Positions 1,720-37,963 of a stretch of 64,000 nt of DNA are shown here, piece by piece; within the stretch, counting starts at the first letter, position 1, and every line of letters starts with the position of its first letter. The notes beneath the pieces are model-generated. The model saw only the letters and a list, made by a program, of their open reading frames with translations, was not told the DNA's origin and made no database searches. A program made the position numbers and the translations under genes. This DNA comes from Clostridia bacterium (GTDB lineage: Bacteria; Bacillota; Clostridia; UMGS1883): assembly GCA_017472685.1 (NCBI GenBank), contig JAFUOO010000004.1, positions 158,903-222,902 of the forward strand, read 5' to 3'.

Positions 1720-3930
1720 ATGACAAACAGATTTAAAAAAGTTGCATCCTATTTATTGGTTGCTGTTATGATTATTGCCCTTCTTGCCGCATGCACAAAC
1801 AGTGAGGGTGAACTTGAAAATGCTGTTGACACCATTTATATCGGTCACCACTACATGCAGGAGGACGACCCCAACTGGGTAAGTGAAATCACAGGCGAAG
1901 GCGTAATGGACCCTGTTAAGCAGAGAGCAGCCCTTGCCGCACTTGCAACAGTAAAGGAAAAGCTCGGCGTTGACATCAAATGGAAGAACTGGCCCAGCAG
2001 CGTTACACAGGACTGCTTGCAGACAGTTCTTGCAGGCGACCCCTATTGCCATATTGCTGTTTTGTCCAACGGCTTCCAGGGCAGAGTAATGGTACAGAAC
2101 GTTCTTCAGCCTCTTGACGAATATATGGACATTTTCGCTCCTGAGGACTATCAGTGGCTCACAATGAGTAAAACCTTCGGTCACTACTATCTTCTCAACC
2201 GTGACCTTTTATACATAACAGACTGGCCTATTGTTTACAATGCAACAATGCTTGACGCCATTCCCGAATTCAAGGAAGCTGACGGCACAACCCTTTATCC
2301 TGCCGAAATGTATGAGCGCGGCGACTGGACATGGAGCAGGTTCCGTTGGTATCTTGAAACAATCCAGAAATACTATGCGGGTAAGAAGGCACCTTCCGGT
2401 ACAGATATAGTTCCTTTCGACGCAAGATATTACTACACAGCCATTCAGGCTGTTCACTCCAGCGGCGGTTATATATATGACGGTGAAGGCATGAACTTTA
2501 CTTCACCTGAGGCTGTTGAAGGTGCAGAATACCTTTCAGACCTTATAGAAGACAGCCTTGTAGACTGCTGTGTAGCTGAATACGGTAAGAGCAATGGCTG
2601 CGGTTACCTTCAGTCGGTAGAAGCCTTTGCGCGTGGCGAATGCGTATTCACAAACTGTGCAAGATGGAAGATGGGCTCTTCCTCCACAGCACTGGCAGAA
2701 CGTGGCGAAAGTATGGGTATCATTTTCTTCCCCCGTCCCGACAATGTGCCCTTCAAGGAATACAACAACGATGTCCACATGGACAAAGACTATAAGTACA
2801 ACATTGCAATTTCCTGTGCCGACAGCGTGGGTCTTCTCCGTGGTCACGACAAGGACGTAAGCCGTCTTGCACTTGAAGCTTATGCAATGTACAGAACAGA
2901 GTTCTACAAGAACTACGGCGGAGTTGAAACTATTGCCGAATATCGCGAAACAATGGCAGCAAATGAAGCCGTTGCATTCGGTATCGATATCTTCCACGAA
3001 GAAATCGGTGACAAGAACCTTGAAATCTTCAAGATGTTAGGCTCCTTGAAAGAAAACGAATTCTGCGAAGGTATGAACATTCACGAAAAATGGGGCGTAA
3101 ATATTTTCGGTAAGGCTGCATTTGCTGTACCCGGTGCTTCAAAGTATCCCGTATATGTAAAGGCTAATGAAAATATTGTAACAGATGCCCTTAATAATAT
3201 CCAGAACGCTCTTAAGGGCGACGGTGCTGTTGACACAACACTTCCCGGCGTTTCCCAGGCAAATAGCGGTATTATCGTTTTCAAGCAGGGAACAGACCCC
3301 CGCACTATTAACTGGGGCTCCATGTTTACAGCAAACGATAACGTTGACGGTGCATACGAAATCAAGCAGGAAGAATACGAAGGCACAGACGCTGAAGGCA
3401 AAACTGTTACAATGTACGGCGATATTTTAATTAAGCCTTCCGTTGCAATGGAAGACGAAAACGGCGAAGAAATAGAGCCCGAATTCGTTGCCGACAGAAT
3501 GTTCATTGAATACGAATACAAGGAAACAGTAAACGACGACGGCACAACAAGCTCTACAGGTATCGACTTTAATAAGGTTGGTAAGTACGACAAGGGTGTT
3601 ATCGTAAAGGTTACTGACTCTCAGGGCAATACAAGAGAGGCTACCTACACTGCATATATCTACGACCAGAACGGTACCAAGGCACCCTCCCTTAAGATTA
3701 AGGAGGAATACGGCACAGTAGCATTGAATGCCGATACATCCACAGTCAAGTGGGCAGATCTGTTCGTTGAAGAAGCCTTTGACGAAAACGGCATTGACCT
3801 TAAGACAATGGTTTCTGCAGACGTTTCCGAGCTTGATGTTACCATTGCAGGCACATACAACGTAACAATTTTCGTTGAAGACTTTGCAGGCAACACAAGC
3901 AGCCAGACAATACCCGTAGAGGTAAAATAA
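1720..3930 (+). CDS. Large secreted lipoprotein, possibly extracellular solute-binding-like, with a C-terminal beta-rich extension.
   Basis: GGAGGG RBS lies 7 nt upstream of the ATG at 1720. Signal peptide plus lipobox (LLAAC). The ORF is long and uninterrupted. Confidence 0.5.
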   Translation: MTNRFKKVASYLLVAVMIIALLAACTNSEGELENAVDTIYIGHHYMQEDDPNWVSEITGEGVMDPVKQRAALAALATVKEKLGVDIKWKNWPSSVTQDCLQTVLAGDPYCHIAVLSNGFQGRVMVQNVLQPLDEYMDIFAPEDYQWLTMSKTFGHYYLLNRDLLYITDWPIVYNATMLDAIPEFKEADGTTLYPAEMYERGDWTWSRFRWYLETIQKYYAGKKAPSGTDIVPFDARYYYTAIQAVHSSGGYIYDGEGMNFTSPEAVEGAEYLSDLIEDSLVDCCVAEYGKSNGCGYLQSVEAFARGECVFTNCARWKMGSSSTALAERGESMGIIFFPRPDNVPFKEYNNDVHMDKDYKYNIAISCADSVGLLRGHDKDVSRLALEAYAMYRTEFYKNYGGVETIAEYRETMAANEAVAFGIDIFHEEIGDKNLEIFKMLGSLKENEFCEGMNIHEKWGVNIFGKAAFAVPGASKYPVYVKANENIVTDALNNIQNALKGDGAVDTTLPGVSQANSGIIVFKQGTDPRTINWGSMFTANDNVDGAYEIKQEEYEGTDAEGKTVTMYGDILIKPSVAMEDENGEEIEPEFVADRMFIEYEYKETVNDDGTTSSTGIDFNKVGKYDKGVIVKVTDSQGNTREATYTAYIYDQNGTKAPSLKIKEEYGTVALNADTSTVKWADLFVEEAFDENGIDLKTMVSADVSELDVTIAGTYNVTIFVEDFAGNTSSQTIPVEVK

Positions 3931-4045: not shown

Positions 4046-4074
4046 TTGACAAATCCCTTTTAGGTGTGTATAAT
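4046..4074 (+). promoter_or_regulatory. Consensus sigma-A promoter for the tRNA-Thr/tRNA-Lys operon.
   Basis: TTGACA, a 17-nt spacer, then TATAAT. It sits about 30 nt upstream of tRNA-Thr. Confidence 0.6.
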
Positions 4075-4106: not shown

Positions 4107-4182
4107 GCTGCCTTAGCTCAGCAGGCAGAGCACTTCCTTGGTAAGGAAGAGGTCGGCAGTTCGAATCTGCTAGGCAGCTCCA
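4107..4182 (+). tRNA. tRNA-Thr, anticodon GGT.
   Basis: Cloverleaf with 7-bp acceptor GCTGCCT/AGGCAGC, D-arm GCTCAGCAGGCAGAGC and anticodon loop TTGGTAA. T-arm is GGTCGGCAGTTCGAATCTGC. CCA is encoded. Confidence 0.85.
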
Positions 4183-4190
4183 ATTTTATG

Positions 4191-4265
4191 GACCATTAGC
4201 TCAGTTGGTAGAGCACCTGACTCTTAATCAGGGTGTCCCGGGTTCGAGTCCCTGATGGTCCACCA
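4191..4265 (+). tRNA. tRNA-Lys, anticodon CTT.
   Basis: Acceptor GGACCAT/ATGGTCC, D-arm GCTCAGTTGGTAGAGC, anticodon stem CCTGA/TCAGG with loop CTCTTAA. T-arm is GGGTTCGAGTCCC. CCA is encoded. Confidence 0.85.
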
Positions 4266-4680
4266 AAAAAAGGACAAGTTTCGAAAGGAACTTGTTCTTT
4301 TTTACTTATTACTTATTCACTCTTCACTATTCCCAAAATGTTTTTTTGTTGTCCCTTCTGGGCTACGCTCCGACGGGCTCAGCCATCGCCTTCATAAGGC
4401 TCGGCTTCACCTCGCAGGGACTCCTCGCTAAAAACAGTCCACCGGACTGTTTTCTTAACGCTCAGACTGATGGTCCACCAAAAAAAAAGACAAGTTTCGA
4501 AAGGAACTTGTTCTTTTTTACTTATTACTTATTCACTCTTCACTATTCCCTAAATGTTTTTTTTGTCCCTCCTGCGCTACGCTCCGACGGGCTCAGCCAT
4601 CGCCTTCATAAGGCTCGGCTTCACCTCGCAGGGACTCCTCGTTAAAACGACTTACTGTAAAGTAGGTCGTTTTTCTTAAT
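4252..4680 (+). repeat. Two tandem copies of a roughly 215-bp unit (4252-4466 and 4467-4680). Each begins with the 14-nt tRNA-Lys 3' end ctgatggtccacca.
   Basis: The two units are near-identical. Each has a terminator-like hairpin (gacaagtt-tcgaaagg-aacttgtc plus a T-run), an AT-rich stretch, and a GC-rich block of about 70 nt (ggctacgctccgacgggctcagccatcgccttcataaggctcggcttcacctcgcagggactcc). The 3' ends diverge but both end in a hairpin plus T-run. Confidence 0.8.
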
Positions 4681-4895
4681 TTCTGTATTCTGCTATTTTT
4701 TTGCCTTTTGACAGCTAAATGACTTTTTTAAAAAGATTATACTCACCGACCTTTAGTGGCTCGGTGAGGATTCGTTTAGTTTATTTTTTGAAACGATAAA
4801 TGTGGGGAAATGTGTTGAAAAGCTAAGAAAAATATGATATGTTAATCAAAAGGTGACTGTTTGCTGAAATATCGATGAAGGAGGTTGAGAAAAGA

Positions 4896-5642
4896 ATGTC
4901 AAATTATCTTGGATTTGATGCAGTCGACTGTGAAAAATTTTATTTTGCAAGTTATAATACGGAAGATAAAGAGCGGGTCGCCAAATATGCTAAAGAGCTT
5001 TCAGAATATGTATCGGTTTGGTATGATTATGGAATCAAAGCGGGATGTGAGTGGGAGAAAGAAATAAATGAGCATATTAAGAGCTGTGAATCACTTATTA
5101 TATTTATAACAAATAACATTTTTTCGAAAGAAGATTCGTATGTGCGAACGGAATATGATATAGCTAAATTTTATAAAAAGCCTATTTATATTGTGTTTCT
5201 TGATGAAATAAATGAATCTTTATTTCCAACTGAATATGTTGCCTGGTGGGTAAAAATGTGTCGTTTACAGGGCGTTAAAAGATCTGACTATTTGGACTAT
5301 AAAGATTGTATTAAAGCTTTAGTAAGAGATATTGGTTGCGAAAACAATAGTAATTCAACTGAAAATGTGAGAATTATCGAATATGATGATGGTATTTTCA
5401 ATGGTGAAGTCGTAAATGAAAAGAAACATGGAAAAGGTCGTTATGAGTTTAAAAACGGAGATGTGTACGAAGGCGAATTTCAAAATGATAAAATGCATGG
5501 TTATGGAAAATATGTTTGGATGAATGGAGATGTATATGAAGGTGAATTTCAGAACGGAATGCGAGATGGAATAGGGAAAACTACATACATAAGCGGAGAT
5601 GTGTACGAGGGAAGATATCAAAACGGCAAAAAAGTGAAGTAG
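4896..5642 (+). CDS. TIR-domain protein with C-terminal MORN repeats.
   Basis: The N-terminus has a TIR-like pattern (FYFASYNTEDKE ... W.DYG ... IIFIT.N...S..V..E). The C-terminus has three or more MORN repeats (GDVYEGEFQNgxxhGxGk). RBS GAAGGAGG is upstream. An alternative start lies at 4875. Confidence 0.6.
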   Translation: MSNYLGFDAVDCEKFYFASYNTEDKERVAKYAKELSEYVSVWYDYGIKAGCEWEKEINEHIKSCESLIIFITNNIFSKEDSYVRTEYDIAKFYKKPIYIVFLDEINESLFPTEYVAWWVKMCRLQGVKRSDYLDYKDCIKALVRDIGCENNSNSTENVRIIEYDDGIFNGEVVNEKKHGKGRYEFKNGDVYEGEFQNDKMHGYGKYVWMNGDVYEGEFQNGMRDGIGKTTYISGDVYEGRYQNGKKVK

Positions 5643-5897: not shown

Positions 5898-6575
5898 TTA
5901 AACGTAAAACTCTTCTAACGTATTTAAACAGATGCAACCAAGTGTATAGCCATATATTGCGCCACAATCTATGGCTATATGATTGTTTTTTGAGTATATC
6001 CTGCCATGATAGTTTTTATCAATTGTGAAAGTAGGAGTATGACCTGTGACCAGTATTTTGTCATCAAAATAAGCTTTTTGATAGTTGCATCTGCCACATA
6101 TAATATCTTCAGTGCTGTAATCGCTTAATTTTTTATCCTGAGAAAAATTGGAAAGGCCGGCATGAACAAGAACAAATTCTTTTTCTTCAAGCTTTATGAT
6201 TTCATATAAAGAAAAGGTTTCTAAGTAGTCTAAAATTCGTTTTCTTTTGGAGTAGTTCTGAAGGATAAAGTCTTTTTTAGTAGCATTTCCACCGTTGACC
6301 ATCCATTCCTGCCATAGCTTCATAGTTGTATGGTCCAAATTCTCTTCAGCATTTAGCTTTGTTAAAACAGGGAGCGCCATTAGTTCATGATTTCCGCGAA
6401 GTGGAATGATGTTGGGTCGAGTCATCATATCTAATAATATTTTAATGCCCCCTTCGCCTCGATCTATTACATCACCCAAGATATACAGCTTGTCGTTACA
6501 ATTTAAGTTGATTTTTTCAAGCATTGTCCTGTATTCGTCATAACAACCATGCAAGTCGGACATCACATATATCAT
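5898..6575 (-). CDS. Calcineurin-like metallophosphatase, PPP-family Ser/Thr phosphatase or ApaH-like.
   Basis: Motifs DLHG, GDVIDRG and GNHE are present. It is the last gene of the minus-strand operon. Confidence 0.75.
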   Translation of the reverse strand: MIYVMSDLHGCYDEYRTMLEKINLNCNDKLYILGDVIDRGEGGIKILLDMMTRPNIIPLRGNHELMALPVLTKLNAEENLDHTTMKLWQEWMVNGGNATKKDFILQNYSKRKRILDYLETFSLYEIIKLEEKEFVLVHAGLSNFSQDKKLSDYSTEDIICGRCNYQKAYFDDKILVTGHTPTFTIDKNYHGRIYSKNNHIAIDCGAIYGYTLGCICLNTLEEFYV

Positions 6576-6590
6576 CTTTGTATACTACCT

Positions 6591-6911
6591 TTATAACTTC
6601 CTTCTTTTTATTTCCTTATGAGTGGCTTCATGAAGCATAACAACGTCAGAATAACTATGGCAACCATAATCAACATTTTTGCAAATGTTGGTTGCGTAAC
6701 AGGCATTGAACTTTTCTGCAGTTAAATCGCGTAAGAAAAGAGTGGTTGTCAGATCCATGAACATTTTATCTAAATCTTCGTTGCTCATATTAGGCAGACC
6801 GGATAAGAATGTGTCTACAGTGGTTTTGTTTATAGGTGTTTCAGTTTTTTTGCGCGATAAGAAAAAAACTATAGCCACTGCAATAAGAATTATAATTATA
6901 AAAGTAGTCAT
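6591..6911 (-). CDS. Small membrane protein, single N-terminal TM helix.
   Basis: ACGGAGGA RBS. The first roughly 20 residues are hydrophobic (TTFIIIILIAVAIVFFL). It is tightly packed within the operon. Confidence 0.4.
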   Translation of the reverse strand: MTTFIIIILIAVAIVFFLSRKKTETPINKTTVDTFLSGLPNMSNEDLDKMFMDLTTTLFLRDLTAEKFNACYATNICKNVDYGCHSYSDVVMLHEATHKEIKRRKL

Positions 6912-6963
6912 ATTTAATCCTCCGTTATCAAAATGCAGATTTTAAAAAATGTAAAGTCGTAAA

Positions 6964-7152
6964 TTATTCCTTTTCGTAATAAAAACAACCGTTTCTGTCA
7001 CTGGGTTTATTATAACCCCCGTAATCTCCCTCGCAACGAACTCTACCATCCTTATCTCTGTCGCGATAGTTTGCGTATATACAATCTGAACAATTGCCTT
7101 CAAAATGCCCCATAGGGAGTTCGATTCTTTCAATTTTTGTTGTGTTTGTCAT
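6964..7152 (-). CDS. Small Cys-containing protein of 62 aa, possibly a Zn-binding ribbon.
   Basis: Strong GGAGG RBS 8 nt upstream of the ATG at 7152. It contains CxxC (GNCSDC) plus two further Cys (RCEG...NGCFYY). The longer ORF in the track starts with a non-ATG codon. Confidence 0.4.
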   Translation of the reverse strand: MTNTTKIERIELPMGHFEGNCSDCIYANYRDRDKDGRVRCEGDYGGYNKPSDRNGCFYYEKE

Positions 7153-7175
7153 AATAAATACCTCCGTTTTGTTTG

Positions 7176-7604
7176 TTAAATAATTTCTAAAGCGTCTTGT
7201 GTAAGTTGGATGTCCAAATCTGCCCTGATTGCTTTGTAGCATATTAACTCTCGGTTCGGAAGAACAAATATAGGAAAATATAGTTCTGTTATACTATCGG
7301 GCATTGCATGCATAATATTGATTATGTATTCTTTATCGGCAGCAGATGGCGTTTTAATACCAAAAAAGTGTGAATGAAAAACTCCTTTAAAATGCTTCCC
7401 GTTTGATTGCCAATTTGATATACATGTGTTAAGGAATGTTACATTTGGAGAATAGGCACAAGTGTATGTCGTTTCCGATGGAATATCTAACACGATATCT
7501 GTAATGACATCTCCATCATTACTTCCTAATATGCCACCTGTTTCAGGGGGACTGGCACGAATTAAAGAGTTAAGATGATTGTACGCAACAGTTGAAATTT
7601 TCAT
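7176..7604 (-). CDS. JAB/MPN (JAMM) metalloprotease-domain protein.
   Basis: Complete JAMM motif: a Glu upstream (PPETGGILG) and H-x-H-x7-S-x2-D (HSHFFGIKTPSAAD). AAGGAGG RBS precedes the ATG at 7604. The track start at 7610 is TTG. Confidence 0.65.
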   Translation of the reverse strand: MKISTVAYNHLNSLIRASPPETGGILGSNDGDVITDIVLDIPSETTYTCAYSPNVTFLNTCISNWQSNGKHFKGVFHSHFFGIKTPSAADKEYIINIMHAMPDSITELYFPIFVLPNRELICYKAIRADLDIQLTQDALEII

Positions 7605-7777
7605 ATTCAATTATCCTCCTTGAAAAAAATGACAGCTCGTATTGAGTACATCTTTATTATACACATGATAAATATATGAGATTTTGGGGTGAAAGAAATA
7701 TGAGAGTGTTTATGAACTGCCTCTTACGATGTAACGTTGAAATTGTTTCTAAGAGGCAGTTCATTGAAACCGATCGC

Positions 7778-8746
7778 TTATCTGTTAGGGAGATAGTCGT
7801 AAGGATTTAAGGTGGGATTATTTATATTTCCATAACTCTTTTGACTATTACGAACTTCGTAATGAAGGTGAGGACCTGTACTATTGCCTGTAGACCCCAC
7901 AGTTCCTATCTGCTGACCTGCTGTTACATAATCACCTGCTTTGACACTGTAGCTATTGAGATGAGCGTAATATATATATACGGTTTTACTGTTAACGTTA
8001 CATTTAATAATGACATGTTTGCCATAGCTAGTCGTCAATGTTCTGGCAGTGTCCACAACTCCGCTGTATGTTGCGTAAACAGGAGTACCTTTAGAAGCGG
8101 AAATATCAGTGCCACTATGATACTTTCCGGAACTGTTATAACGAGGCCAATTCTTCTGATCTGTGCCACCATTGCCGCCAACAGGCCATACTTTTGTTTT
8201 GCTTGAGTTATTTGATGATGAATTGTTATTAGAGAGGTCTTCTGCAAAGGCTAATTTGTAGCCACGCTTGTTTGATTTTGCTTCATATATAGTATTGTAG
8301 TACTTACCTGACAGAACATATACTTTATCGCCGACACAATAGTATCCTGTTTTGCCGCCGCCGTTGTACTTATATGTTGTAACCTTCTTGTTTGCAGTGA
8401 AGGATGAAGAAGGAGAAATATTACCACCAAGCAAGTCGCTTGTACGAATGTAGCCTTCTCTGTGGGAGTTGCCTACGGGATAGGAAAGGTAGATGTATTT
8501 AGAAGTTATTTTATAGATGTAGCAAATATCACCTTTCTCTATATAGGCATTGTATTCTTTTGACGGACTGCTTGTACCTCTGGTATTGGTATTAGAAGAA
8601 GTATAAACGTTTAATTTTTTTACGGCAGTAAATTCGCAGTAGTTGCTTTTAGATAATGATGGGTAACTTGCGGCAGATGCACTTATACTAAGAAGAGAGA
8701 ACGCCATAATGATAGTTAATACAATTGAAATTATTCTTTTTGTCAT
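7778..8746 (-). CDS. Secreted SH3-like plus M23 (lysostaphin-like) peptidase. Paralog of 30764-31768.
   Basis: Signal peptide (MTKRIISIVLTIIMAFSLLSISASA) and two SH3-like modules. The M23 catalytic signature is HxxxD ... HLHYE. There is a low-complexity Ser/Asn linker. Confidence 0.7.
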   Translation of the reverse strand: MTKRIISIVLTIIMAFSLLSISASAASYPSLSKSNYCEFTAVKKLNVYTSSNTNTRGTSSPSKEYNAYIEKGDICYIYKITSKYIYLSYPVGNSHREGYIRTSDLLGGNISPSSSFTANKKVTTYKYNGGGKTGYYCVGDKVYVLSGKYYNTIYEAKSNKRGYKLAFAEDLSNNNSSSNNSSKTKVWPVGGNGGTDQKNWPRYNSSGKYHSGTDISASKGTPVYATYSGVVDTARTLTTSYGKHVIIKCNVNSKTVYIYYAHLNSYSVKAGDYVTAGQQIGTVGSTGNSTGPHLHYEVRNSQKSYGNINNPTLNPYDYLPNR

Positions 8747-9055
8747 AATTGTTAATCCTTTCTGTTTTAAATATTTATATTGAGACTGTAAAAGGAGTTC
8801 AGCAACACCTCCTTTAATAAAAGTTTTAAGAATTGATTCAAGAACTGTCATATTTTATACCTGACTTGAATAATAACCTTAACTTAATTAATGTTTTTGA
8901 CTGAGTAAATAAATGTGTTGGAACTTTGTTCATAATGAACCTCCTTAAGACTTAATGTTTCAATGTCAGTTGACACTTATATATATACCACGGGATGAAA
9001 AATAGAAAAAATGGGGGTGATAATTTGGTAGAGGTGTATTCAAAGAAGAACTTAA

Positions 9056-10069
9056 TTATATTCTGAAACCTATTTCGCGGTTTTCCGCAGATAGTTTGGT
9101 TGGAAGTTCTGCTTTAACAAATCCGGCATTAATCGAAATTGTTTGTGCACCTAAAGCCAACATATAAATAGCCCTGCGGAATATATTATCAGCAAGCTTT
9201 TCGACATCTCTCACTCCGGGTTCCGTACAAGCTTCACAGATTAACTTAATCGCTGATTCATAAAAAACTATTTCTGATTTCTCGACTTTATATTTCGAAT
9301 AAAGTTTTGGAATAATATAATTTTTTAAAATAAGATATTTTTCTTTTTTTGTATAGCCTTGTATATGTATTACATCTAATCGATCGCGGAGAATGGGATT
9401 TACCTCATTGATGTCGTTTGCGGTTAGGATAAATGTTATATTGGAAACGTCTAACGGGATAGCTAAAAATTGATCTATAAATGCGGTGTTTGTGCTATCA
9501 AAAAGTGAAAGGAGAGCCATTTGAGGACTTCGCTCATTCTTTTCCATTTTGTCCACTTCATCTAAACAGATTACGGCAGAAAAACTTCCGGAGCGCTGTA
9601 TAGCATCTGCTATATAACCTTGATTTGCAGCTTTCCATGTGGGATTGCTTCCCAAAAGCTCCCATTGAGCGGTGGTGCCTTGAAGTGGTACTTTATAAAA
9701 GGGTTCGTTGAGAACCTCGGCTATAATTTCGCAGATTGTGGTTTTGCCGGTGCCTGCAGGTCCTGTTAATAATATGCCTTTGCCGGACTTGCCGGTGCGT
9801 TCACGAACTGCCAACAATTGAAGAATTTTTGTTTTGGTTTCGTTCATGCCGTGATGCTGGGAGTTAAGCATTTCCTGTGCTTTTTGGTAGTCAATTTTAG
9901 TGTGTTCTTTTCCTATACTTGACCATGGAAGGCGTTTAATTGCTTCACGTTGTTCGGTGGTTAATACGTTGGATTTCCATATTTTATATGCGGCGGGCGA
10001 CATGTTTTTCTCCAATGTATCTTTCTTTTCGTCCAATGCTTCAAAAGCGCGTTCTATTTTTTCATCCAT
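9056..10069 (-). CDS. Lon-family AAA+ ATPase module without a protease domain.
   Basis: Walker A GPAGTGKT, Walker B CLDEVDK. A Lon-like sensor region (ILRDRLDVIHIQGYTKKEK) resembles the Lon PLLDRMEVI..GYTEEEK segment. The protein stops after the ATPase module. AAGGAG RBS precedes the ATG at 10069. Confidence 0.6.
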   Translation of the reverse strand: MDEKIERAFEALDEKKDTLEKNMSPAAYKIWKSNVLTTEQREAIKRLPWSSIGKEHTKIDYQKAQEMLNSQHHGMNETKTKILQLLAVRERTGKSGKGILLTGPAGTGKTTICEIIAEVLNEPFYKVPLQGTTAQWELLGSNPTWKAANQGYIADAIQRSGSFSAVICLDEVDKMEKNERSPQMALLSLFDSTNTAFIDQFLAIPLDVSNITFILTANDINEVNPILRDRLDVIHIQGYTKKEKYLILKNYIIPKLYSKYKVEKSEIVFYESAIKLICEACTEPGVRDVEKLADNIFRRAIYMLALGAQTISINAGFVKAELPTKLSAENREIGFRI

Positions 10070-10276
10070 ATTCAACACTCCTTAAAAATTAATTTGACTC
10101 TCCGCCTTACACCGATATAAATATCATACTGTAACGAGTTAAAATTTGGGGAGGGAAAGAAATGAGAGTTTATATGACAATAAGGTTAATGTAAAGGGCA
10201 AAACTTGACTTTATTTGTCATTTTTGAGATAATAGAAGCAAATGCAAAAGCTGTGTCAGAGGGGAGTGGCAAAATT

Positions 10277-12622
10277 ATGGAAATAGATGTATTTATAAGT
10301 TACAGTTCTAAAGAATTCAACAAAGCATTGTTGATAAAAGAAGCATTGTCGGAAAATGACATTTCAGTATGGATGGCTCCAGAGTCCATACCTATAGGGT
10401 CAAACTATACAAAGGAAATTCCTGTTGCAATTAAAAACTGTAAAATTTTTTTACTCATATTGTCACAAAATGCACAAAATTCTATATGGGTACCAGCAGA
10501 AGTTGAAAATGCATATAAAAATGAGAAACTTATTTTCCCATTTATAATAGAAGACTGTCCGTTAACAGAACAATTTGATTTTCTGTTGTCGATGAGTCAA
10601 AAAATAGAGGCAGCGCAGCCACCGATAGAACATAGAATAAGTGAACTCGTTGAAAAAGTTTTGTTGCATTTAGGTAGAAAACAAATAATCGATAAAACAA
10701 ATACAGGGAAAACCGAATATCAGCTGTCCACAATGAAAATTTATGCAGATAAAAACTTCAAAGGAAGAGATGCCGAGCTTGATATTATCCATAAAAATCT
10801 GATGTCAGATAAAAATAAGTTTTTTATTGTCGGAATGGGTGGATGCGGAAAGAGCGAGTTGGCAAACAGATACTGTGAGAAACATTCGAATGATTATGAA
10901 AATATCATAAAGATTACATACAGCGGTTCTTTGAAGGAATCTATTGCAAATGATAGTCCTTTGAATATTTGTGGGATTGTGCGCAATGAAAATTTGGATA
11001 AGAGCGTCGATGAATATTTTGAATACAAGCTTAATGTGTTAAAAAATATAACTGATGAAAGAACTCTGCTGGTTATCGATAATTTTGATGTATCGGAAGA
11101 TGAGAAGCTTGATGAACTGTGTAGCGGTAGATTTGCAATACTTTTCACAACTAGAAACAGGGTAATAAATAATAGATTTGAACAATTGTTATTGGATGAA
11201 GTCAAACTTGATACAAATGAACAATTTGAATTGTTTAAGGATTTTTATCAGATAGAATTAGAACAAGATGAGATTGAAATAATAATGGAAATCTTAACAT
11301 TGTTGGATGGGCACATTTTAAGTATAAGATTGGTTGCATCTACGATGAATTCTAATTGTATTGAACCTGATGAAATGCTCGATATTTTGAAAAATGTAGG
11401 CGCAAGTAAACAATCAGATGTTGTGTATTCTCGAATAAATAAATTGATGCAGTTATCGCAACTTTCAGAGGAAGAATTGTATTTGCTAAAAAATCTTTCT
11501 CTTGTTCCGCTGTCGGGAATCAAGAAAAAGACTTTTATTGAGTGGTGCGGAAAAGAAGATTTTGAAACAATAAATGGATTGATACAAAAAAGCTGGGTTA
11601 TTCGTGACAATAAGGATGTAATTCATTTGCATCCCATAATTTCCGATTTAGCATTTGAAGAATTAAGTAACAATTTTGGTCTTTGTGATAACTTCTTGCA
11701 TGCCTTGACAGAAAATTGTGAAGAAGCACATAAGTTAAACTATAAAAATAAACAGTGGTTAATTGAAACGACTAATTATTTATGTGATAAGTTTCGAAAT
11801 AATTCAGAATTGTGCCAGAAGATGCTAATGTCTAAAGCGCGTATGCTGAATCATTTGTCACGTTATGGAGAATCTATAGCTTTATATGAATCGATTCTCA
11901 GGTATAGGATTGATAGAGAAACCAAAAGATTGATTTGCGCGCGATTAGCGCACTTGTACTGTTTAAGTGGTTTCCCTGAGAAAGCATTAGAGAATGTGGA
12001 AACTTGTATTAGTGAATTTTTCTGCATAGATGTAGAAAAAATGACACCTGAAGAGCTATACATATATAAAGGAGTAATAACCCGACGTGTTGAAGCAAAT
12101 AGGCATTTGGGCAATTACGACATTGCAATATCAGATGCTCGAAAAGTTTTGGAGGTGTATTTGAAGGGCATCGATAATGAGTTGAATCGTAGTATACTAT
12201 GGGGAAAATATCATTTAGCAAGAGCACTGTATATGAGAGGATTGCCCCTGGATATAGAAGAAAGCGAAAAGCACATTTGCGAGGCAATAGAATTATGCGA
12301 GAGCGAAAAATCCTATTGGGATAAAGATTTTTGCATAGAATTACTAGCGCAGATACAGATGAAACAGGGAAAATATGAGCAAGCTATAGAAAATATGAAG
12401 CTTGCATATGAAAGTATAACAAATTTTTCCGGGAAAATTCATGTAGGTGTTGCAGTAAACCGTGTTTTCTTAGGTAATATATACCGCACCATGGGAAATG
12501 AAACCGAAGCAGTAAAATGTTACAATGAAGCAATCGAGATATTTCATAAATGCGGAACATTCAAGCTTGAAGATAATGCGAGATGCATACTTAATAGTGG
12601 AAAAATTGGATATGTAAGTTAA
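10277..12622 (+). CDS. TIR-STAND protein: N-terminal TIR, central P-loop NTPase (NB-ARC-like), C-terminal TPR-like repeats.
   Basis: TIR (DVFISYSSKE ... LLILSQN ... S.WV..E), P-loop GMGGCGKS, Walker B LLVIDNFD, and a C-terminal helical repeat region. The ATG at 10277 is preferred over the upstream in-frame start. Confidence 0.7.
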   Translation: MEIDVFISYSSKEFNKALLIKEALSENDISVWMAPESIPIGSNYTKEIPVAIKNCKIFLLILSQNAQNSIWVPAEVENAYKNEKLIFPFIIEDCPLTEQFDFLLSMSQKIEAAQPPIEHRISELVEKVLLHLGRKQIIDKTNTGKTEYQLSTMKIYADKNFKGRDAELDIIHKNLMSDKNKFFIVGMGGCGKSELANRYCEKHSNDYENIIKITYSGSLKESIANDSPLNICGIVRNENLDKSVDEYFEYKLNVLKNITDERTLLVIDNFDVSEDEKLDELCSGRFAILFTTRNRVINNRFEQLLLDEVKLDTNEQFELFKDFYQIELEQDEIEIIMEILTLLDGHILSIRLVASTMNSNCIEPDEMLDILKNVGASKQSDVVYSRINKLMQLSQLSEEELYLLKNLSLVPLSGIKKKTFIEWCGKEDFETINGLIQKSWVIRDNKDVIHLHPIISDLAFEELSNNFGLCDNFLHALTENCEEAHKLNYKNKQWLIETTNYLCDKFRNNSELCQKMLMSKARMLNHLSRYGESIALYESILRYRIDRETKRLICARLAHLYCLSGFPEKALENVETCISEFFCIDVEKMTPEELYIYKGVITRRVEANRHLGNYDIAISDARKVLEVYLKGIDNELNRSILWGKYHLARALYMRGLPLDIEESEKHICEAIELCESEKSYWDKDFCIELLAQIQMKQGKYEQAIENMKLAYESITNFSGKIHVGVAVNRVFLGNIYRTMGNETEAVKCYNEAIEIFHKCGTFKLEDNARCILNSGKIGYVS

Positions 12623-12659: not shown

Positions 12660-12976
12660 GTTGAAAACACTCATCCAAAAATTCAAATATTTATTATCGG
12701 TTATTATGTATATCGAAATAATTGCAAAAGTAAGGTGAAAGCCTGATTCCTCTTGGCAAATGGGTGTAATTATAGAAGTGAGCTGTGCATTTTTATTGAC
12801 CCCAAAAACAGATTAATAAAAATGATGGTAAACTAAAATCAACATGAAGCAGGGGGAATTATATGAAGAAAGTTAAAAACAGAGGCGGGTAGATCTGAGA
12901 AACATTGAGGGAAACATTATAATAAATCAGAAAAATTAAAGGGATTTCTAAAAGTTGTATATAAAAAGGAGATAAT

Positions 12977-13582
12977 ATGAGCGGAATAAGAATTAAAGAG
13001 GAAAAGTATGTATTTATAAGCTATCATTCAAAATATTACATGGAAGCTTTTGCAATAAAAGAGCTGCTACAATGTAAGCAAATTCCTTGCTGGATAGTTC
13101 CTTACGATCTTCCTGATGGGTACTTATATGAGTGGATTATCAATGAAAATGTTGATAATTGTACTTGCTTTTTATTGTTGGAGGACGATACAGAAGATGG
13201 GCTTATAAACCGAGAAAGAGAACGAGCTATCTCATGTGGTAAAAGCATACTTAATGTTAAGCTACATGATTTTGTATTTGAACCATATTTAAAGTTTAAT
13301 CTGAAGGCAAGTTATGTGGCTCCCGGAAAAAGAATAGAACAAAATTTGTCAAAAACGCAAGAATTACTGGACACATTAATGGATATTACAGGAATTGAAT
13401 ATTCAGAGCCAAAGAGTGCACAACAAATTTTAGCGGAAATCGGGGCAGAACTGGAAGAAGAATTTGCAAAGTTTATCAAGGAGGATGAAGAGAATCCACC
13501 TACAATAATTGATAAAATAAAAAATTTTTTTGCAAGTATTTTCTGTTTGTTTGAAACTTGTGAGTATGAAGAAGATAAGTAA
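12977..13582 (+). CDS. Small stand-alone TIR-like domain protein.
   Basis: AAAAAGGAGA RBS. Shows the VFISYHSK ... W..P ... FLLLEDD pattern typical of bacterial TIR folds. Confidence 0.45.
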   Translation: MSGIRIKEEKYVFISYHSKYYMEAFAIKELLQCKQIPCWIVPYDLPDGYLYEWIINENVDNCTCFLLLEDDTEDGLINRERERAISCGKSILNVKLHDFVFEPYLKFNLKASYVAPGKRIEQNLSKTQELLDTLMDITGIEYSEPKSAQQILAEIGAELEEEFAKFIKEDEENPPTIIDKIKNFFASIFCLFETCEYEEDK

Positions 13583-17697: not shown

Positions 17698-17735
17698 GAC
17701 TGAGCCTTGACTTAATGTCAAGGCTCAGTTTGTGT
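17698..17735. terminator. Bidirectional terminator between convergent genes.
   Basis: Hairpin gactgagccttgac-ttaat-gtcaaggctcagt. Confidence 0.55.
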
Positions 17736-19970
17736 GTAGATATTTGCTTTTCTTAATAATTCTTGCGGGGTGTACAAAGGAAAGATACCCGTTTCATCTT
17801 CCAAAGAGACTGCAACAATATTTTGAGCCGTGTTGGCATCAAGGTAGCCCTCGACTTTGTATTTGAGAGAAAGTGTTTCAGTGTTAATGAAATATGCAGT
17901 GCTGTCAAGCTTTAGCATTAAAAGATTTTCAGAAGGGAAATATTCATAGCTGACGGAATCGAAGGTTGTGTTTAATTCCAAACTGTCAATGATTGAATAA
18001 TCTGATAAATCTATTTTATGAAGCTTGGCATCGGATGAAAAAACAGTAAGCGTATTTTTATTGTCAACAAACAATAATTTCTGTATTGGAATACTGGAAT
18101 TAAAGTGTTTTACAGGTCTGGTTGTATAAATGTCGTAAATCATCAATTTCGGCATACGGAATGAATCGTTTTGAAGTGAGTTGTAGAAGAGTATACCTGC
18201 ATAGTTGTCTGAAATCCAAATTAAATCAGTATTTTCCTCTTTTTGTTTGGGTAGGGTTAGTGCCATTTGTGATTCATTGGGGTCATAAAACACATATGTA
18301 GTTTCATTTTCCTTGCTATGTTGCATAATTTCTGCAATGATTTTACCGGTAGAAGAAACTTTAAATTTGGTGATATAGGAATCGGGGTTATTCGTGAAAA
18401 ATTCGGGAACCCATTCAATAAATGCGTTGTTGCGGGAATAAATCAATGCGCCCGACTCGGATACGAAGTAAATGTTTTCATTGAAAACAGATGGAATAGA
18501 ATTTGCCTTGCCTTGGTATGAAAAAAGCTCCTTCTTGCCAGGCAAGTCATAGACTGACGTTGCAGTGCTTGACTGCAGGCAAATTTTATTGTCGCTGACA
18601 AAGCAAGCATGGGAAGCATTAGGCAACTCTTTAAAAAATTGGGTGTTTTCCGTAAATGTGTTGTATAGATATGCTTTATCAGAATTGGTGAAAAGAGCGT
18701 ATTCTCCCGATGGACTGAAGGTGAAGTTTGAAATAGGGGAGAATTCAAAGGATAGCGGGATAAAATCCTCGTTGGGAGAGGCGATTGTGTAGACGAAAAC
18801 ATCGACAGACGGAGGTGTTGATACAACATACGTGTTATTGTATTGAGAAGAGAGGGATGTTGTGTCTGCATAGGATGGTGCAGCAAGATAGTCATCTGTA
18901 TCTGCTGAATTGGCGATGATTTCTCCCGTGAAAGCATCTATTGTTTTAATTTCGTGATTTTCTATAAGCAAAAAAATGTGAGCATCTTCAGGGGAAGCAG
19001 CTCCAAATGAAAGTTTGGTATCTTTTGAAGCGGAGAGCTTTGCTACTAAATAACCATCTTTGCGCCAAAGATAAAACGCGTTTTCATCCCTTGTTAAAAT
19101 AGTTTGGCCCATGCAGGTGTGGGTAACGTAGGAAACCGGGTGTTCGTGAGAAAGGGTTGAAATGTGCTTTTTGAATGACGGACTGAAAGCGCCGATTTCC
19201 TCTGAAAGAAGGTGAAGAGCGTTGTCAGGAATTTTATCAGAATCCTTAATTGAGGAAATTTCATCAGTAAGCATTGTGACAGCAGATAAAATGTCGCCCG
19301 AATTATATTTTTTCAATGAGTCTTCAACAACGTTGAGAGTATTTTCTGTTTGAAGATTGTTATCCAGTGAAAAAATATTACCCAATAAACATGCTAAAAC
19401 AATGAAAAGAAACAATGCGGAGATGATTACGGAAAGTGCTCGTTGTTTTCTTCGACGCTTTACGCGGTCATTTAGTTTATTAAATTCGCAATCTAAAAGG
19501 GAAGCTGCTATTCTTAAACATTCATTCTTTATAACTCTCTTTTTTACGGGGAAGGAACACTTTGAAAAATCACAAGCTATCCAATTATTATCATACAATT
19601 CTTTAGGCAGAACTTCTTTTGCATCGCCGCTTATAATACAAGGGACTATGCCTTTGTAGCTGTTATCGAAGTTTCTTTTTTTGTAAAAGTTAATTTCATT
19701 AGAACAGAACTTGGATTTAGGGTAGTTGTCCGAATAGAGAGCAATTAAAAATTCGGATTTTAATATTTTATGATAGATTTCGGTGTTAACTGGTTTTGCT
19801 GCGTTAAAATCGGTTTTATCAAGACAAATCTTCCATTTTTTGAAGTTTTTGGGACGAAGCTTTTTGGGAGGAGTAAAGGTTTCCAAAAAACGTTGAATTT
19901 GTTGAGCTACGCCTTTGTCGTCATCGTGCTTATAGCTGATAAAAGCTTTGTATTCGTAATTTGTGTTCAT
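17718..19970 (-). CDS. TIR-domain protein with one TM helix and a large extracytoplasmic beta-rich (propeller-like) C-terminal region.
   Basis: N-terminal TIR (KAFISYKHDDD ... LIALYS.NY..S.FC..E). TM segment LSVIISALFLFIVLACLLG. About 550 aa of beta-strand-rich repeats. GAGGTG RBS. Confidence 0.6.
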   Translation of the reverse strand: MNTNYEYKAFISYKHDDDKGVAQQIQRFLETFTPPKKLRPKNFKKWKICLDKTDFNAAKPVNTEIYHKILKSEFLIALYSDNYPKSKFCSNEINFYKKRNFDNSYKGIVPCIISGDAKEVLPKELYDNNWIACDFSKCSFPVKKRVIKNECLRIAASLLDCEFNKLNDRVKRRRKQRALSVIISALFLFIVLACLLGNIFSLDNNLQTENTLNVVEDSLKKYNSGDILSAVTMLTDEISSIKDSDKIPDNALHLLSEEIGAFSPSFKKHISTLSHEHPVSYVTHTCMGQTILTRDENAFYLWRKDGYLVAKLSASKDTKLSFGAASPEDAHIFLLIENHEIKTIDAFTGEIIANSADTDDYLAAPSYADTTSLSSQYNNTYVVSTPPSVDVFVYTIASPNEDFIPLSFEFSPISNFTFSPSGEYALFTNSDKAYLYNTFTENTQFFKELPNASHACFVSDNKICLQSSTATSVYDLPGKKELFSYQGKANSIPSVFNENIYFVSESGALIYSRNNAFIEWVPEFFTNNPDSYITKFKVSSTGKIIAEIMQHSKENETTYVFYDPNESQMALTLPKQKEENTDLIWISDNYAGILFYNSLQNDSFRMPKLMIYDIYTTRPVKHFNSSIPIQKLLFVDNKNTLTVFSSDAKLHKIDLSDYSIIDSLELNTTFDSVSYEYFPSENLLMLKLDSTAYFINTETLSLKYKVEGYLDANTAQNIVAVSLEDETGIFPLYTPQELLRKANIYTQTEP

Positions 19971-28240: not shown

Positions 28241-28396
28241 TATATAGGTGCTATTTGAGGGGTCTTCTTGCGGCAGAAAACTGTTTGATAAGGAAACCCC
28301 TCAAATTAAAAATCATATTATTGCGAATATTGGGAGATGGCTTATTTATATGTTGAGCAACATATAAATAGCAAAGTTTAAATGTGGGGAATGTGT

Positions 28397-30079
28397 ATGG
28401 AAAGCCGTGTAAAAATAAAAACAAGGAATAATTCAGAACATAAAGATAAGAACAGGGTATATTTTGCTTGCCATCCAGATGATTTCGAAATAAGCTTTGA
28501 TAAAATTACTGATAAAATTCTTGAAAAGCAAAATTGCGCAATATACTATGGTATAACTGATAAAGCTATGAAAGAAGATGAATCTATAGCTGTTTTATTA
28601 CAGATGCAACTGATTGTTATACCGATAACTGAAAAATTTTTGCGCGAAGATAATGGTGCCTATAATATTGTGTTTAAGATAGCGATTGAAAACCATATTC
28701 CCGTTTTGCCGATTATGCAGGAAGAGGATATAGGGGACTTATTTAATGAGAAATGTGGAAAACTCCACTACCTCAAAGAAACAACCGAAACTACGGAGAT
28801 AAGTTATGATGAAAAAATAGAGAGTTTTTTGAATTCTGTATTAGTCAACGACGAGATAGTAGAAAAGATACGTGATGCATTTGCAGCATATATTTTTTTA
28901 AGCTATAGAAAAAAAGACAGAAAATATGCACAAGAATTAATGAGACTTATACATAAGAATGATTTCTGTCGTGATATTGCGATTTGGTATGATGAGTTTT
29001 TGACGCCCGGTGAGAATTTCAACGATTCTATAAAAGAAGCTATTAAAAAAAGCGGATTGTTTGTACTTGCGGTAACACCGAATTTGATAAATGAAACAAA
29101 CTATGTAATGACAACGGAATACCCTATGGCAAAGAGAGAAGGAAAGCTTATACTTCCTACAGAACTTGTTCCGACAGACAGGAAGGCACTCGCTAAAAAG
29201 TATAGTGATATTCCAACACCTATAGATATAAATAATGATATCGAATTTTCAGATGCTCTTCTTGATTCTGTTAAGAAAATAGAAATTAAGAAAAATGTTA
29301 TCACGCCGGAACACAACTTCTTCATTGGACTTGCGTACCTGGATGGAATTGATATGGAAATTGATCATGCACGTGCTCTTGCACTTATAACCAGTGCTGC
29401 AGAAGAGCAACTTGTGGAGGCAATGAAAAAATTGATATCAATGTATAAAAGAGGAAAAGGTGTTTGCGTAGATTATATCATAGCACTAAACTGGCAATAT
29501 CGTTTGGTAAATATACTGCTTCAAAAATTTAACGCTGAAAAAACGGTAGCTGCTTTTTCGGAATATTTCCATGAATTGTTTAATTATGTCGGAGATTTGT
29601 ACAACGAACGAGGAGATGGACCATATGAGTTAGGTGCATCCAAAGTGCTTGAAGATTGCATCTTATATATTGATGGGCTTCAAAGGGAGAGACATAAAGA
29701 ACTTCAAGAAAAATTCAACAAGGATGATGTATTAAGAGAATGCTTGCGTGATGATGAAATGATGAATGTGTTAATAGAAACAAGACAAAAACTGCGTTTT
29801 GTGGCAGAAAGATTCTTGCCAAAAACATGTGATCTTTACAGGGAATTGATTTATGACAAAAATCAGGACAAAACGCCTTCCCAAGCTGTTATCAGGTGTT
29901 GGCTATCATATTTTTCTGAGTACGCAGGAGATATTGAGGTTGCCATGCAATATAGAAAAGAAGCAGAAAACATTATAGGGGATTACGCATCAAAGGATAC
30001 TGGAGATGTCAATGAGCTATGTAAAAAATGTGGTATAGGTATATGTAGTATGAAAAAAATCATTGACAGCTTTCGTTAG
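28397..30079 (+). CDS. TIR-domain protein with an N-terminal domain of unknown function and a C-terminal Sel1/TPR-like helical region.
   Basis: Internal TIR (AYIFLSYRKKDRKYAQEL ... WYDE ... LFVLAVTPN...S.YV..E). N-terminal VYFACHPDD region of unknown function. Terminator follows. Confidence 0.55.
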   Translation: MESRVKIKTRNNSEHKDKNRVYFACHPDDFEISFDKITDKILEKQNCAIYYGITDKAMKEDESIAVLLQMQLIVIPITEKFLREDNGAYNIVFKIAIENHIPVLPIMQEEDIGDLFNEKCGKLHYLKETTETTEISYDEKIESFLNSVLVNDEIVEKIRDAFAAYIFLSYRKKDRKYAQELMRLIHKNDFCRDIAIWYDEFLTPGENFNDSIKEAIKKSGLFVLAVTPNLINETNYVMTTEYPMAKREGKLILPTELVPTDRKALAKKYSDIPTPIDINNDIEFSDALLDSVKKIEIKKNVITPEHNFFIGLAYLDGIDMEIDHARALALITSAAEEQLVEAMKKLISMYKRGKGVCVDYIIALNWQYRLVNILLQKFNAEKTVAAFSEYFHELFNYVGDLYNERGDGPYELGASKVLEDCILYIDGLQRERHKELQEKFNKDDVLRECLRDDEMMNVLIETRQKLRFVAERFLPKTCDLYRELIYDKNQDKTPSQAVIRCWLSYFSEYAGDIEVAMQYRKEAENIIGDYASKDTGDVNELCKKCGIGICSMKKIIDSFR

Positions 30080-34068: not shown

Positions 34069-34330
34069 CGTCAGTGCACCTCTTAATCAGGGACTTCAAT
34101 TTGTGCCTCTGTCTGGGTTAAGTGCTCTATCAACTGAGCGTAGCGAAGTTGGCGTCCTGTGGGCGATGAAGCGAGTGCGGAGAGTTGTGCCGTGGTCAAT
34201 TTTGTATGAGTTAATGCGAATGAACAAAATTGGGTACCACAAACGGGCGACAGGTGTGCGAGCGGGGCAGTGAAGCTCACGAAGGTACCGCAAAGGTCAT
34301 CCTAACATGCAAAGTAACAAAAAATATACG
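34069..34330. other. GC-rich non-coding element of about 260 bp, an unassigned candidate structured RNA.
   Basis: The GC shift relative to the AT-rich flanks is sharp. Only short antisense ORFs without RBS are present. The 5' end contains cacct-cttaatcaggg, matching the tRNA-Lys anticodon arm. Confidence 0.25.
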
Positions 34331-37913: not shown

Positions 37914-37963
37914 TGCCATGAGAATAAATCTTGATTGTGTTGATTTTGCACGGAGGTAAATTT

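Follow-up and report, generated by a model that had tools for sequence, protein, structure and literature searches.

We observed that the 3' end of an intact tRNA-Lys(CTT) gene is repeated downstream of this gene, together with most of a small non-coding unit. With moderate confidence, we explain the two units as decayed, non-coding remains of small integrative elements that recombined site-specifically at the tRNA-Lys(CTT) 3' end, in a CIME-like manner with tandem accretion. A scar of this type is ordinary and known. Two aspects are less ordinary, namely how small the units are and the fact that conserved folded blocks, here named G and X, always accompany the tRNA end fragments. The analysis was performed on the whole presented stretch of 64,000 nucleotides, referred to as the window, and all positions refer to it. 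The features of the locus are as follows.

4046-4074, plus strand: sigma-70-type promoter of the tRNA-Thr/tRNA-Lys operon, TTGACA-17-TATAAT (12/12 hexamer matches; same site in the related locus L023).
4107-4182, plus strand: tRNA-Thr(GGT) (ARAGORN; Rfam tRNA, 67.1 bits).
4190-4265, plus strand: tRNA-Lys(CTT), intact (ARAGORN; Rfam, 66.8 bits).
4252-4265, plus strand: core copy 1, named c, the terminal 14 nt of tRNA-Lys, CTGATGGTCCACCA (exact 14-mer match).
4266-4303, plus strand: T1 of unit 1, terminator-like hairpin of 17 pairs followed by a T run (terminator scan; minimum-free-energy fold).
4304-4350, plus strand: S of unit 1, AT-rich spacer (sequence reading; homologous spacers in L011, L020 and L023).
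4351-4429, plus strand: G of unit 1, GC-rich structured block (fold; pairing kept across five lineages).
4431-4453, plus strand: H2a, hairpin present in unit 1 only, AAAACAGTCC-ACC-GGACTGTTTT (repeat alignment; fold).
4454-4466, plus strand: J, non-tRNA arm abutting core copy 2, CTTAACGCTCAGA (conserved as CTTAACGCTCRGA in relatives).
4467-4480, plus strand: core copy 2, displaced 14-nt tRNA-Lys 3' fragment, att-core-like (exact match).
4481-4519, plus strand: T1 of unit 2 (repeat alignment; terminator scan).
4520-4564, plus strand: S of unit 2 (repeat alignment).
4565-4643, plus strand: G of unit 2, fused straight to H2b, without H2a-J-c (repeat alignment; covariance model R1).
4644-4674, plus strand: H2b, terminator hairpin unrelated to H2a, AAAACGACTTACTGTAAAGTAGGTCGTTTTT (terminator scan).
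4675-4789, plus strand: conserved leader, CTTAATTTC...TTGACAGCTAAAT...hairpin (blastn to L022 and L023).

The initial annotation had stated that the 14-nt tRNA-Lys 3' end recurs exactly 215 nt downstream, and this was confirmed. There are exactly two matches to CTGATGGTCCACCA in 64 kb (4252 and 4467, on the same strand), while shuffles yielded 0.15 matches to the 14-mer at two or fewer mismatches. It had also stated that the entire 215-bp unit is duplicated in tandem, which has to be corrected. The c-T1-S-G repeat (4252-4433 vs 4467-4647) covers approximately 182 nt with approximately 96-97% identity (95.6% including two small indels), and its alignment consists of three gap-free segments, each 96-100% identical. 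The 33-37 nt tail of unit 1 (H2a and J) is without counterpart in unit 2, which ends in H2b. The total is approximately 1.85 units, not two complete ones. The structure does not correspond to a simple tandem duplication, as H2a-J (approximately 37 nt) is missing both from unit 2 and from the one-unit alleles L003 and L004. The 215-nt pair was not among the repeats listed by Tandem Repeats Finder, and we did not find further copies of any part of the repeat in the 64-kb window beyond the two units.

Unit 1 (4266-4466) is non-coding and is bounded by two identical cores, i.e. by repeats of the attL/attR type without integration genes. The interval from tRNA-Lys to core copy 2 measures 201 nt and contains no real ORF. 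In unit 1, S opens with four tandem heptamers (ACTTATT ACTTATT CACTCTT CACTATT, by sequence reading), G folds into an outer stem, GTCCCT/AGGGAC, around a long interrupted hairpin, and H2a is terminator-like on both strands. The terminator hairpin and the GC-rich block that had been described in each unit were both recovered (4266-4303 and 4481-4519 for terminator-like hairpins; 4351-4429 and 4565-4643 for the GC-rich blocks). The start of the 14-nt fragment, CTG|ATGGTCC, lies 3 nt ahead of the T-stem/acceptor junction. J and c together can form a GGACU/GGUCC minihelix followed by ACCA; the first pair of this helix is broken in the window. Of the at least three att copies by which CIMEs and accretion are recognised, the window holds just two cores, and a third would have been lost by deletion.

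We looked at this structure in other assemblies of the same species. The exact protein encoded at 1720-3930, just upstream of the repeat, was found on nine metagenome contigs. The two-unit structure was also present in L001 and L002, which are two independent metagenome assemblies, while L003 and L004 carry one unit, c-T1-S-G-H2b, without H2a-J. The contigs of L003 and L004 are k=141 short-read assemblies, and the 182-nt repeat is collapsible at that k. Judging from these contigs, copy-number polymorphism between the assemblies is plausible, and the real number of units in the source genome could be higher than two. In L003 the SNPs switch from unit-1 type to unit-2 type within G, in L004 the switch is within T1-S, and unit 2 of L001 bears unit-1 SNPs. 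Because of these mosaics, we place homologous exchange or gene conversion between the 182-nt repeats and not at the core. The one-unit alleles lack H2a-J, and therefore the two-unit allele is not derivable from them by simple duplication. Contigs of this species and of its relatives very often end at the tRNA-Lys locus.

Relatives were represented by uncultured Clostridia/Oscillospiraceae MAG lineages from ruminant guts, in which the flanking gene is 76-88% identical in protein. The junction of G, hairpin, CTTAACGCTCRGA and tRNA end is kept in four related Oscillospiraceae-like lineages, and its CTTAACGCTCRGA/tRNA-end portion in a fifth. In all five (L011, L014, L016, L020 and L023) CTTAACGCTCRGA stands directly before the 14-nt tRNA end, and the break is at the identical nucleotide. 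Local contexts around this J|c junction vary among the five lineages, and one of them is inverted. The arrangements at the related loci are given below, where TA is a terminator and X is the second GC-rich structured module.

L023, downstream of tRNA-Lys: tRNA(c)-H2b-S-G-H2a-J-c-TA-X-anticodon-arm fragment-G fragment-terminator-leader.
L011, downstream of tRNA-Lys: tRNA(c)-TA-X-(50-nt tRNA-Lys 3' half)-H2b-S-G-H2a-J-c-terminator-Gut-1 RNA...H2b.
L020, downstream of tRNA-Lys: tRNA(c)-other terminator-AT-rich DNA-H2b-S-G-H2a-J-c (c with one mismatch).
L014, downstream of tRNA-Lys: tRNA(c)-TA-X; a partial G-H2a-J-c is inserted between 21-nt direct repeats.
L016: inverted orientation, hairpin-J-c-T1-S-G fragment.
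L028: inverted orientation, 47-nt tRNA-Lys 3' half.
L022: tRNA(c)-terminator-leader, without the G/H2a/J module, then AAA_13 ATPase, a 563-aa ORF, tyrosine integrase and excisionase.

In L022 tRNA-Lys is thus followed by terminator and leader without the module, but this locus holds another element. Most of the added orthologous loci (L024-L029) stop at or before the tRNAs. The tRNA-Lys 3' halves of L011 (50 nt) and L028 (47 nt) both start at the anticodon stem-loop. All tRNA-Lys pieces extending to the 3' end of the gene (14, 47 or 50 nt) are in direct orientation and start at or near a crossover subsite. There are three copies of the tRNA end within 560 nt in L011. This locus corresponds approximately to L023 with an insert of approximately 270 nt (tRNA 3' half, TA and X) flanked by 50-nt tRNA repeats, and the insert looks like textbook integration geometry at the anticodon loop. 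H2b lies directly 3' of the intact tRNA-Lys in L023 and 3' of the displaced 50-nt half in L011. Because of these two positions it behaves as the native terminator of tRNA-Lys, which it probably is. In L023 the G fragment is joined to the terminator via a microhomology junction, ACGGCTT. Based on these comparisons of sequences, we regard the J|c junction as old, and its creation by an integrase as inferred.

The repeat had been read as an att-like scar, which is broadly apt, on circumstantial evidence. This reading gained the conserved J|c junction, the canonical subsite at which the fragment starts, and the tRNA 3' halves and integrase-bearing element of relatives; it did not gain an integrase in the window, nor a parent element or attP in our searches. 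PF00589 had no match among 30 island or island-flanking ORFs of the window, and tblastn of the window with two integrases gave nothing below E = 0.03. Neither the 215-bp interval nor the rest of the 64-kb window yielded an integrase, an excisionase or a recognisable pseudogene. Both L022 and L099 carry xis, int and cargo at this tRNA-Lys, and a 69%-identical integrase with xis and primase adjoins tRNA-Lys(CTT) in another organism. An intact parent element or attP with G or J-c was found neither in viral contigs, nor in 69 viral loci with related integrases, nor in the elements of L022, L099 and L102. The L022 integrase could not be tied to the 14-nt core: no tRNA fragment was found at the distal junction of the L022 element, which has no repeat apart from a weak 25-nt, 84% AT-rich one of a quality expected by chance, and the module does not occur in the 69 loci.

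The proposal that the GC-rich block is a structured RNA gained support from compensatory changes, which we regard as suggestive. The 201-nt unit bearing this block folds better than shuffles (z = -5.7 for the plus strand, z = -3.7 for the minus strand), and in a five-helix model 97% of cells are paired across five lineages. Double-sided changes were observed in five pairs among the five lineages, four of them in the inner hairpin of G and one in H2a, while slid controls did not show any double-changed pair (0/6). H2a is 100% paired in the five lineages, with one G-C to A-U compensatory change in L011. With only five sequences, all of them related, the conserved fold of G is suggestive and falls short of proof. 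G-H2a-J is 86-92% identical between lineages, whereas the neighbouring gene reaches 71-83% and the promoter region 72-79%. Covariance model R1 scored 165 bits for unit 1 and 95 bits for unit 2, and in 345 kb of related loci it found copies at the tRNA-Lys locus only.

A search of Rfam 15, suggested earlier as a way to identify the GC-rich block, did not provide an identity: only tRNAs passed, and the best other matches in 4266-4700 scored 16.6-24.6 bits vs gathering scores of 67-137. A coding function of G was ruled out, as no reading frame survives the 1-nt and 4-nt indels that separate the lineages. A group I intron, a retroelement primer-binding site and an IscB/TnpB guide RNA were rejected for both G and X, as there were no such proteins or Rfam matches. 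We did not find a promoter-like site before G, spacer S included, and therefore a plus-strand transcript needs either read-through from the tRNA promoter or an unusual promoter. Strand cues for G conflict: judged by its G·U pairs it would slightly more likely be read from the minus strand, and judged by where the terminator lies, from the plus strand. Exact-word scans with 22-26-mers gave 0 matches for CCATCGCCTTCATAAGGCTCGG in the genome, viral and metagenome collections, for CTCGCAGGGACTCCTCGCTAAAAAC in the viral and metagenome collections, and for CTTAACGCTCRGACTGATGGTCCACC in the viral collection. There was no match in blastn of the unit against plasmid and phage collections. A protein-database search with the spurious ORF spanning the units gave just one weak match, with the AT spacer as the common part.

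Islands and prophages in tRNA genes were reportedly attributed to tyrosine integrases by Reiter in 1989 and Williams in 2002, and CIMEs and tandem accretion are said to have been treated by Pavlovic in 2004 and Bellanger in 2011. When an element integrates into a tRNA gene, the gene is restored and a piece of it is displaced, in 3760/3919 catalogued islands a 3' piece; the crossover subsites are the anticodon loop, the T loop and the T/acceptor junction (PMC4383910). A CIME is a decayed element which is without integration genes and has kept both att sites, and its tandem accretion is documented, with one precedent in Streptococcus agalactiae, where an accretion tandem occupies a tRNA-Lys 3' end (PMC5704250). 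Fragments of tRNA left behind by mobile elements are pervasive (PMC9897764).

The order of events that we propose for the locus is as follows. A tyrosine integrase, now gone from the locus, would have recombined the tRNA gene with an attP arranged as ...S-G-H2a-J-[c]-T1-S..., with the crossover where the T and acceptor stems meet. The element would have supplied a new tRNA 3' end and its own terminator (c-T1), so that c-T1-S would represent its left end, and the old 14-nt end would have been displaced downstream, behind the right arm G-H2a-J. The interior of the element may have been lost afterwards. The second unit may have arisen via further integration or via unequal exchange between units. 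A short-homology deletion (AAAAC), with endpoints at ...CTAAAAAC and ...CCAAAAAAC, would then have removed H2a-J-c from the distal unit and joined G to H2b. The observed G/H2b joint, CTCGTTAAAACGACTT, equals the joint predicted by this deletion except for one substitution and one A. Today the 182-nt repeats would recombine homologously, with shuffling of SNPs and a possible change in copy number. Transcription from the strong tRNA promoter is probably stopped by T1, H2a and H2b as intrinsic terminators, and G may be a conserved folded part of the element arm, such as a small RNA, a 3'-UTR structure or a recombination-arm structure.

We favour an att-type origin because the repeat begins exactly at the 14-nt tRNA end, in direct orientation and downstream of an intact gene, and because the break lies 3 nt from the T-stem/acceptor junction, a listed crossover subsite (PMC4383910). 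Further reasons are the J|c junction with identical CTTAACGCTCRGA in five other lineages of differing contexts, the independent 47- and 50-nt tRNA-Lys 3' halves that start at the anticodon stem-loop, and the int/xis elements that adjoin this tRNA in L022 and L099 and tRNA-Lys(CTT) elsewhere. The interval from tRNA-Lys to the conserved EamA gene is hypervariable, G-H2a-J is more conserved between lineages than the neighbouring gene and the promoter region, and one-unit alleles without H2a-J cannot yield the two-unit allele by simple duplication; these observations also speak for this origin, as does the fact that accretion tandems of decayed elements are documented (PMC5704250). There are also counterpoints. 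All lineages with J|c are related, and one ancient event by any mechanism, followed by vertical inheritance, would give the same break point. The same T1-S-G follows both cores, which would not be expected if an element had simply integrated into a naive site. In L003 and L004, the SNP mosaics suggest that homologous exchange took place inside the units, not at the core. An integrase is absent from the window, the searches did not find an intact element or attP with G or J-c, and the L022 integrase could not be linked to the core. The 33-kb island downstream is not bounded by c either; its cargo begins behind the leader at 4675-4789, which L022 and L023 share, and the only tRNA-derived pieces at its far end are short.

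Several of these observations can be explained in a different way. S-G-H2a could have been native to the region 3' of tRNA-Lys from the start, either as a gene for a small RNA or as the structured trailer of the tRNA operon; tRNA-Lys and its trailer would have been duplicated in tandem, and the second tRNA would then have suffered a 62-nt 5' deletion, with no integrase involved. In such a case the shared break point is explicable by vertical inheritance, and microhomology deletions clearly happen at this locus, but the end of the deletion must coincide with a canonical integrase subsite, and the clade has two more independent tRNA-Lys fragments, both of which include the 3' terminus and begin at another canonical subsite, the anticodon stem-loop. 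Several features would suit a small RNA: five compensatory changes leave the fold of G and H2a intact, both segments are better conserved than the gene alongside, and a terminator-like hairpin follows G on the tRNA strand. The lack of a promoter-like site before G would not suit it. Every known copy is at this single locus, and no integrase was found in the window. However, the module occurs in rearranged or inverted contexts (L014, L016, L020) and is wholly absent from L022. On balance we consider a native small RNA unlikely.

A miniature non-autonomous element is a doubtful explanation. According to it, the gene-less unit of approximately 200 nt (terminator, heptamer spacer, G, H2a and J) is still moved in trans by a tRNA-Lys-specific integrase, and its copy number changes via recombination at the core. 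Identical cores bound the unit, and full units with two flanking cores are present in L023 and L011, but the SNP mosaics of one-unit contigs put the exchange in T1-S or G. The number of units does differ between assemblies; however, the one-unit contigs come from k=141 short-read assemblies able to collapse the 182-nt repeat. L011 contains a second mini-module (terminator TA and X, approximately 220 nt) flanked by 50-nt tRNA repeats. Lambda-type attP carries arm-type sites, and the spacer heptamers sit at a position that may be comparable to theirs. Against such mobility, no copy of the unit was found at other sites or on mobile elements (viral scans, 69 integrase loci, model R1). It is very improbable, and largely refuted, that the structure is an assembly artefact or a dispersed intergenic repeat unrelated to tRNA loci, both of which had been named as possible refutations of an att-like scar. 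The frequent breaks of contigs at the tRNA-Lys locus and the two contigs with a single unit would agree with an artefact. Against an artefact, the two-unit structure and the H2a-J junction unique to it recur between the window and the two independent assemblies L001 and L002, and the junction is kept in other species. A dispersed repeat of the REP/MITE type is rejected, as neither the 64-kb window nor the 345 kb of related loci contained copies outside the tRNA-Lys locus, and exact-word scans of three large collections gave 0 matches.

We compared the favoured att-type scar with known systems. As in tRNA islands (Islander, PMC4383910), an intact tRNA gene has behind it a displaced 3' fragment in direct orientation, which starts at the T/acceptor junction (14 nt) or, in relatives, at the anticodon loop (47-50 nt). 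Variable low-GC cargo adjoins the tRNA, and a relative has int and xis at the same tRNA. Unlike in these islands, the interval here is gene-free and measures 201 nt, much less than any island. No integrase lies between tRNA and fragment or elsewhere in the window, the 33-kb island described below is not bounded by the 14-nt repeat, and no attP or excised form is known. The units resemble CIMEs in the loss of integration genes, the kept flanking att repeats, the tandem at one att site and the mixture of site-specific and homologous rearrangements. They differ from them in size, as known CIMEs are kilobases long and our units approximately 200 nt. Known CIMEs also have an autonomous relative that shares integrase and att, whereas none was found here in our searches, and the distal att copy of the second unit is missing, presumably by deletion.

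The 3' external transcribed spacers of tRNA operons give rise to small RNAs, e.g. 3'ETS-leuZ of E. coli. By analogy, G is a structured segment downstream of a tRNA on the same strand, behind a leaky-looking terminator, and could be released from the tRNA precursor. In contrast to 3'ETS RNAs, G is separated from the tRNA by a 17-pair terminator hairpin and is linked to a repeated tRNA end.

Downstream of the leader there is a variable island, and X lies near its far end.

4790-37900, strand not assigned: low-GC variable defence-like island (GC profile, domains, synteny).
34080-34092, plus strand: decayed sense fragment of the tRNA-Lys anticodon arm, CTCTTAATCAGGG (13/13 match to tRNA-Lys positions 32-44).
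34113-34294, plus strand: X block, second GC-rich structured module (blastn to the X blocks of L011 and L014; alignment; consensus fold).

The GC content of the island is 0.32-0.37 vs 0.44-0.48 outside, and its domains include TIR, NB-ARC, JAB, kinase and nuclease. It lies between the tRNA-Lys locus and the EamA gene (37931-38839), and synteny with L011 resumes at 37962. The length of the tRNA-Lys to EamA interval is 33.6 kb in the window and 4.7 kb in L011, and other cargo is present in L020 and L022. By blastn, the leader region is shared with L022 (4667-4723, 91%) and L023 (4667-4789, 78%), and lineage-specific cargo begins after the leader (4675-4789). The earlier expectation that a distant copy of the core would delimit the island was not borne out: no third core copy was found in the 64-kb window. 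Circumstantial evidence from these sequences suggests that the tRNA-Lys locus may be an integration hotspot which also holds the 33-kb defence-like island. The scar marks tRNA-Lys(CTT) as such a hotspot in an uncultured Oscillospiraceae-like lineage of the ruminant gut, sets the left limit of the defence-type island and explains why assemblies of these genomes break at the tRNA-Lys locus.

G and X are two candidate structured elements with early covariation support, always linked to tRNA-Lys end fragments. If they are transcribed or mobile, they show how very small gene-less units persist at att sites; if they are neither, the locus is a routine att scar. It is a speculative and rather improbable idea that G and X are new structured non-coding RNAs and the sole cargo of gene-less mini-elements of approximately 200 nt, which would use an integrase in trans and bring their own tRNA 3' end and terminator, X with an 18-20-nt antisense match to the D-arm. 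If true, such mini-elements would correspond to MITEs but depend on an integrase, and the RNA they carry would be linked to the target tRNA. In the window, the 5' end of the X block (34122-34139) is an 18-nt antisense match to the tRNA-Lys D-arm, and in relatives X adjoins the tRNA-Lys 3' half. The only tRNA-derived pieces at the far end of the island are short, namely the 13-nt fragment at 34080-34092 and the X block.

The conserved EamA gene (37931-38839) and the tRNA-Lys(CTT) gene border a low-GC variable island in the window (4790-37900, GC 0.32-0.37). We detected four ORFs with TIR domains in this island:

4875-5642, TIR ORF with MORN repeats
10205-12622, TIR-NB-ARC-TPR ORF
17718-19970, TIR-domain ORF
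28382-30079, TIR-domain ORF

The island also encodes a JAB-like ORF, an AAA ATPase, a CHAP/cohesin protein, two M23 peptidases and a PP2C phosphatase. The phosphatase adjoins a Ser/Thr kinase of 1359 aa that carries a Card1/CARF-PDDEXK-like (PD-T4-6-like) nuclease at its C terminus. No integrase was found within 4790-37900. At the left edge there is a conserved leader (4675-4789), common to the window and the related loci L022 and L023, which includes TTGACAGCTAAAT and a hairpin at approximately 4744-4770. Lineage-specific cargo begins directly behind this leader. Therefore the leader may be the true left boundary of the variable region, or a promoter for it.

Breaks at this locus were noted at the contig ends of L005, L008 and L010, and also in L006, L007 and L009. 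These independent assemblies break either within tRNA-Thr or within tRNA-Lys, in the latter case at approximately position 57-58, just ahead of the 14-nt core formed by the tRNA 3' end. The breaks thus suggest strain-level alternatives starting at the 3' part of the tRNA. In the T-stem of tRNA-Lys(CTT) (window 4235-4256), C is mismatched with U, a pairing that the Rfam alignment marks as non-canonical. The mismatch was kept in all lineages examined.

Small integrase elements adjoin tRNA-Lys(CTT) in three of the compared loci:

L022, 8761-13829, and L099, 700-6025: AAA_13 ATPase, 563-571-aa ORF, integrase, excisionase
L102 (another organism), 6067-11143: 635-aa ORF, D5_N primase, HTH_17 excisionase, 69%-identical integrase

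A clear distal tRNA fragment was not found for either the L022/L099-type element or the L102 element.

A second GC-rich structured module, the X block, is approximately 160 nt long, has a closing stem GGUGCU/GGCACC and gave no match in Rfam. Its copies were located as follows:

Window, 34113-34294
L011, 12618-12770
L023, 8942-9096
L014, 12627-12790

The first 18-20 nt of the block (window 34122-34139) are antisense to the tRNA-Lys D-arm. In L011 and L023 a sense fragment of tRNA-Lys, anticodon arm or 3' half, starts directly after the block end, whereas the anticodon-arm fragment of the window (34080-34092) precedes the block by about 20 nt. The window copy carries a 54-nt internal insertion. 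Covariation was weak (2 pairs among 4 sequences). In L014, the 21-nt direct repeat CAAACGGAAGAGCACCATTTG (12767-12787 and 12888-12908) brackets an insert of approximately 100 nt inside the block end, consisting of partial G-H2a-J-c (GC-rich block, hairpin, non-tRNA arm and 14-nt core).

Gut-1 RNA (RF01706) had no match within the window. It was identified in L011 at 13057-13133 (56.7 bits, Rfam gathering score 50), right behind a terminator and the tRNA-Lys end in its third copy there.

The AT-rich spacer is made up of degenerate tandem heptamers in every lineage. The spacer motif ACTTATTACTTATTCACTCTTCACTATTC is present at window 4304-4340 and at 529-568 of L019, an unrelated 917-nt metagenome contig, where it also follows a terminator hairpin.
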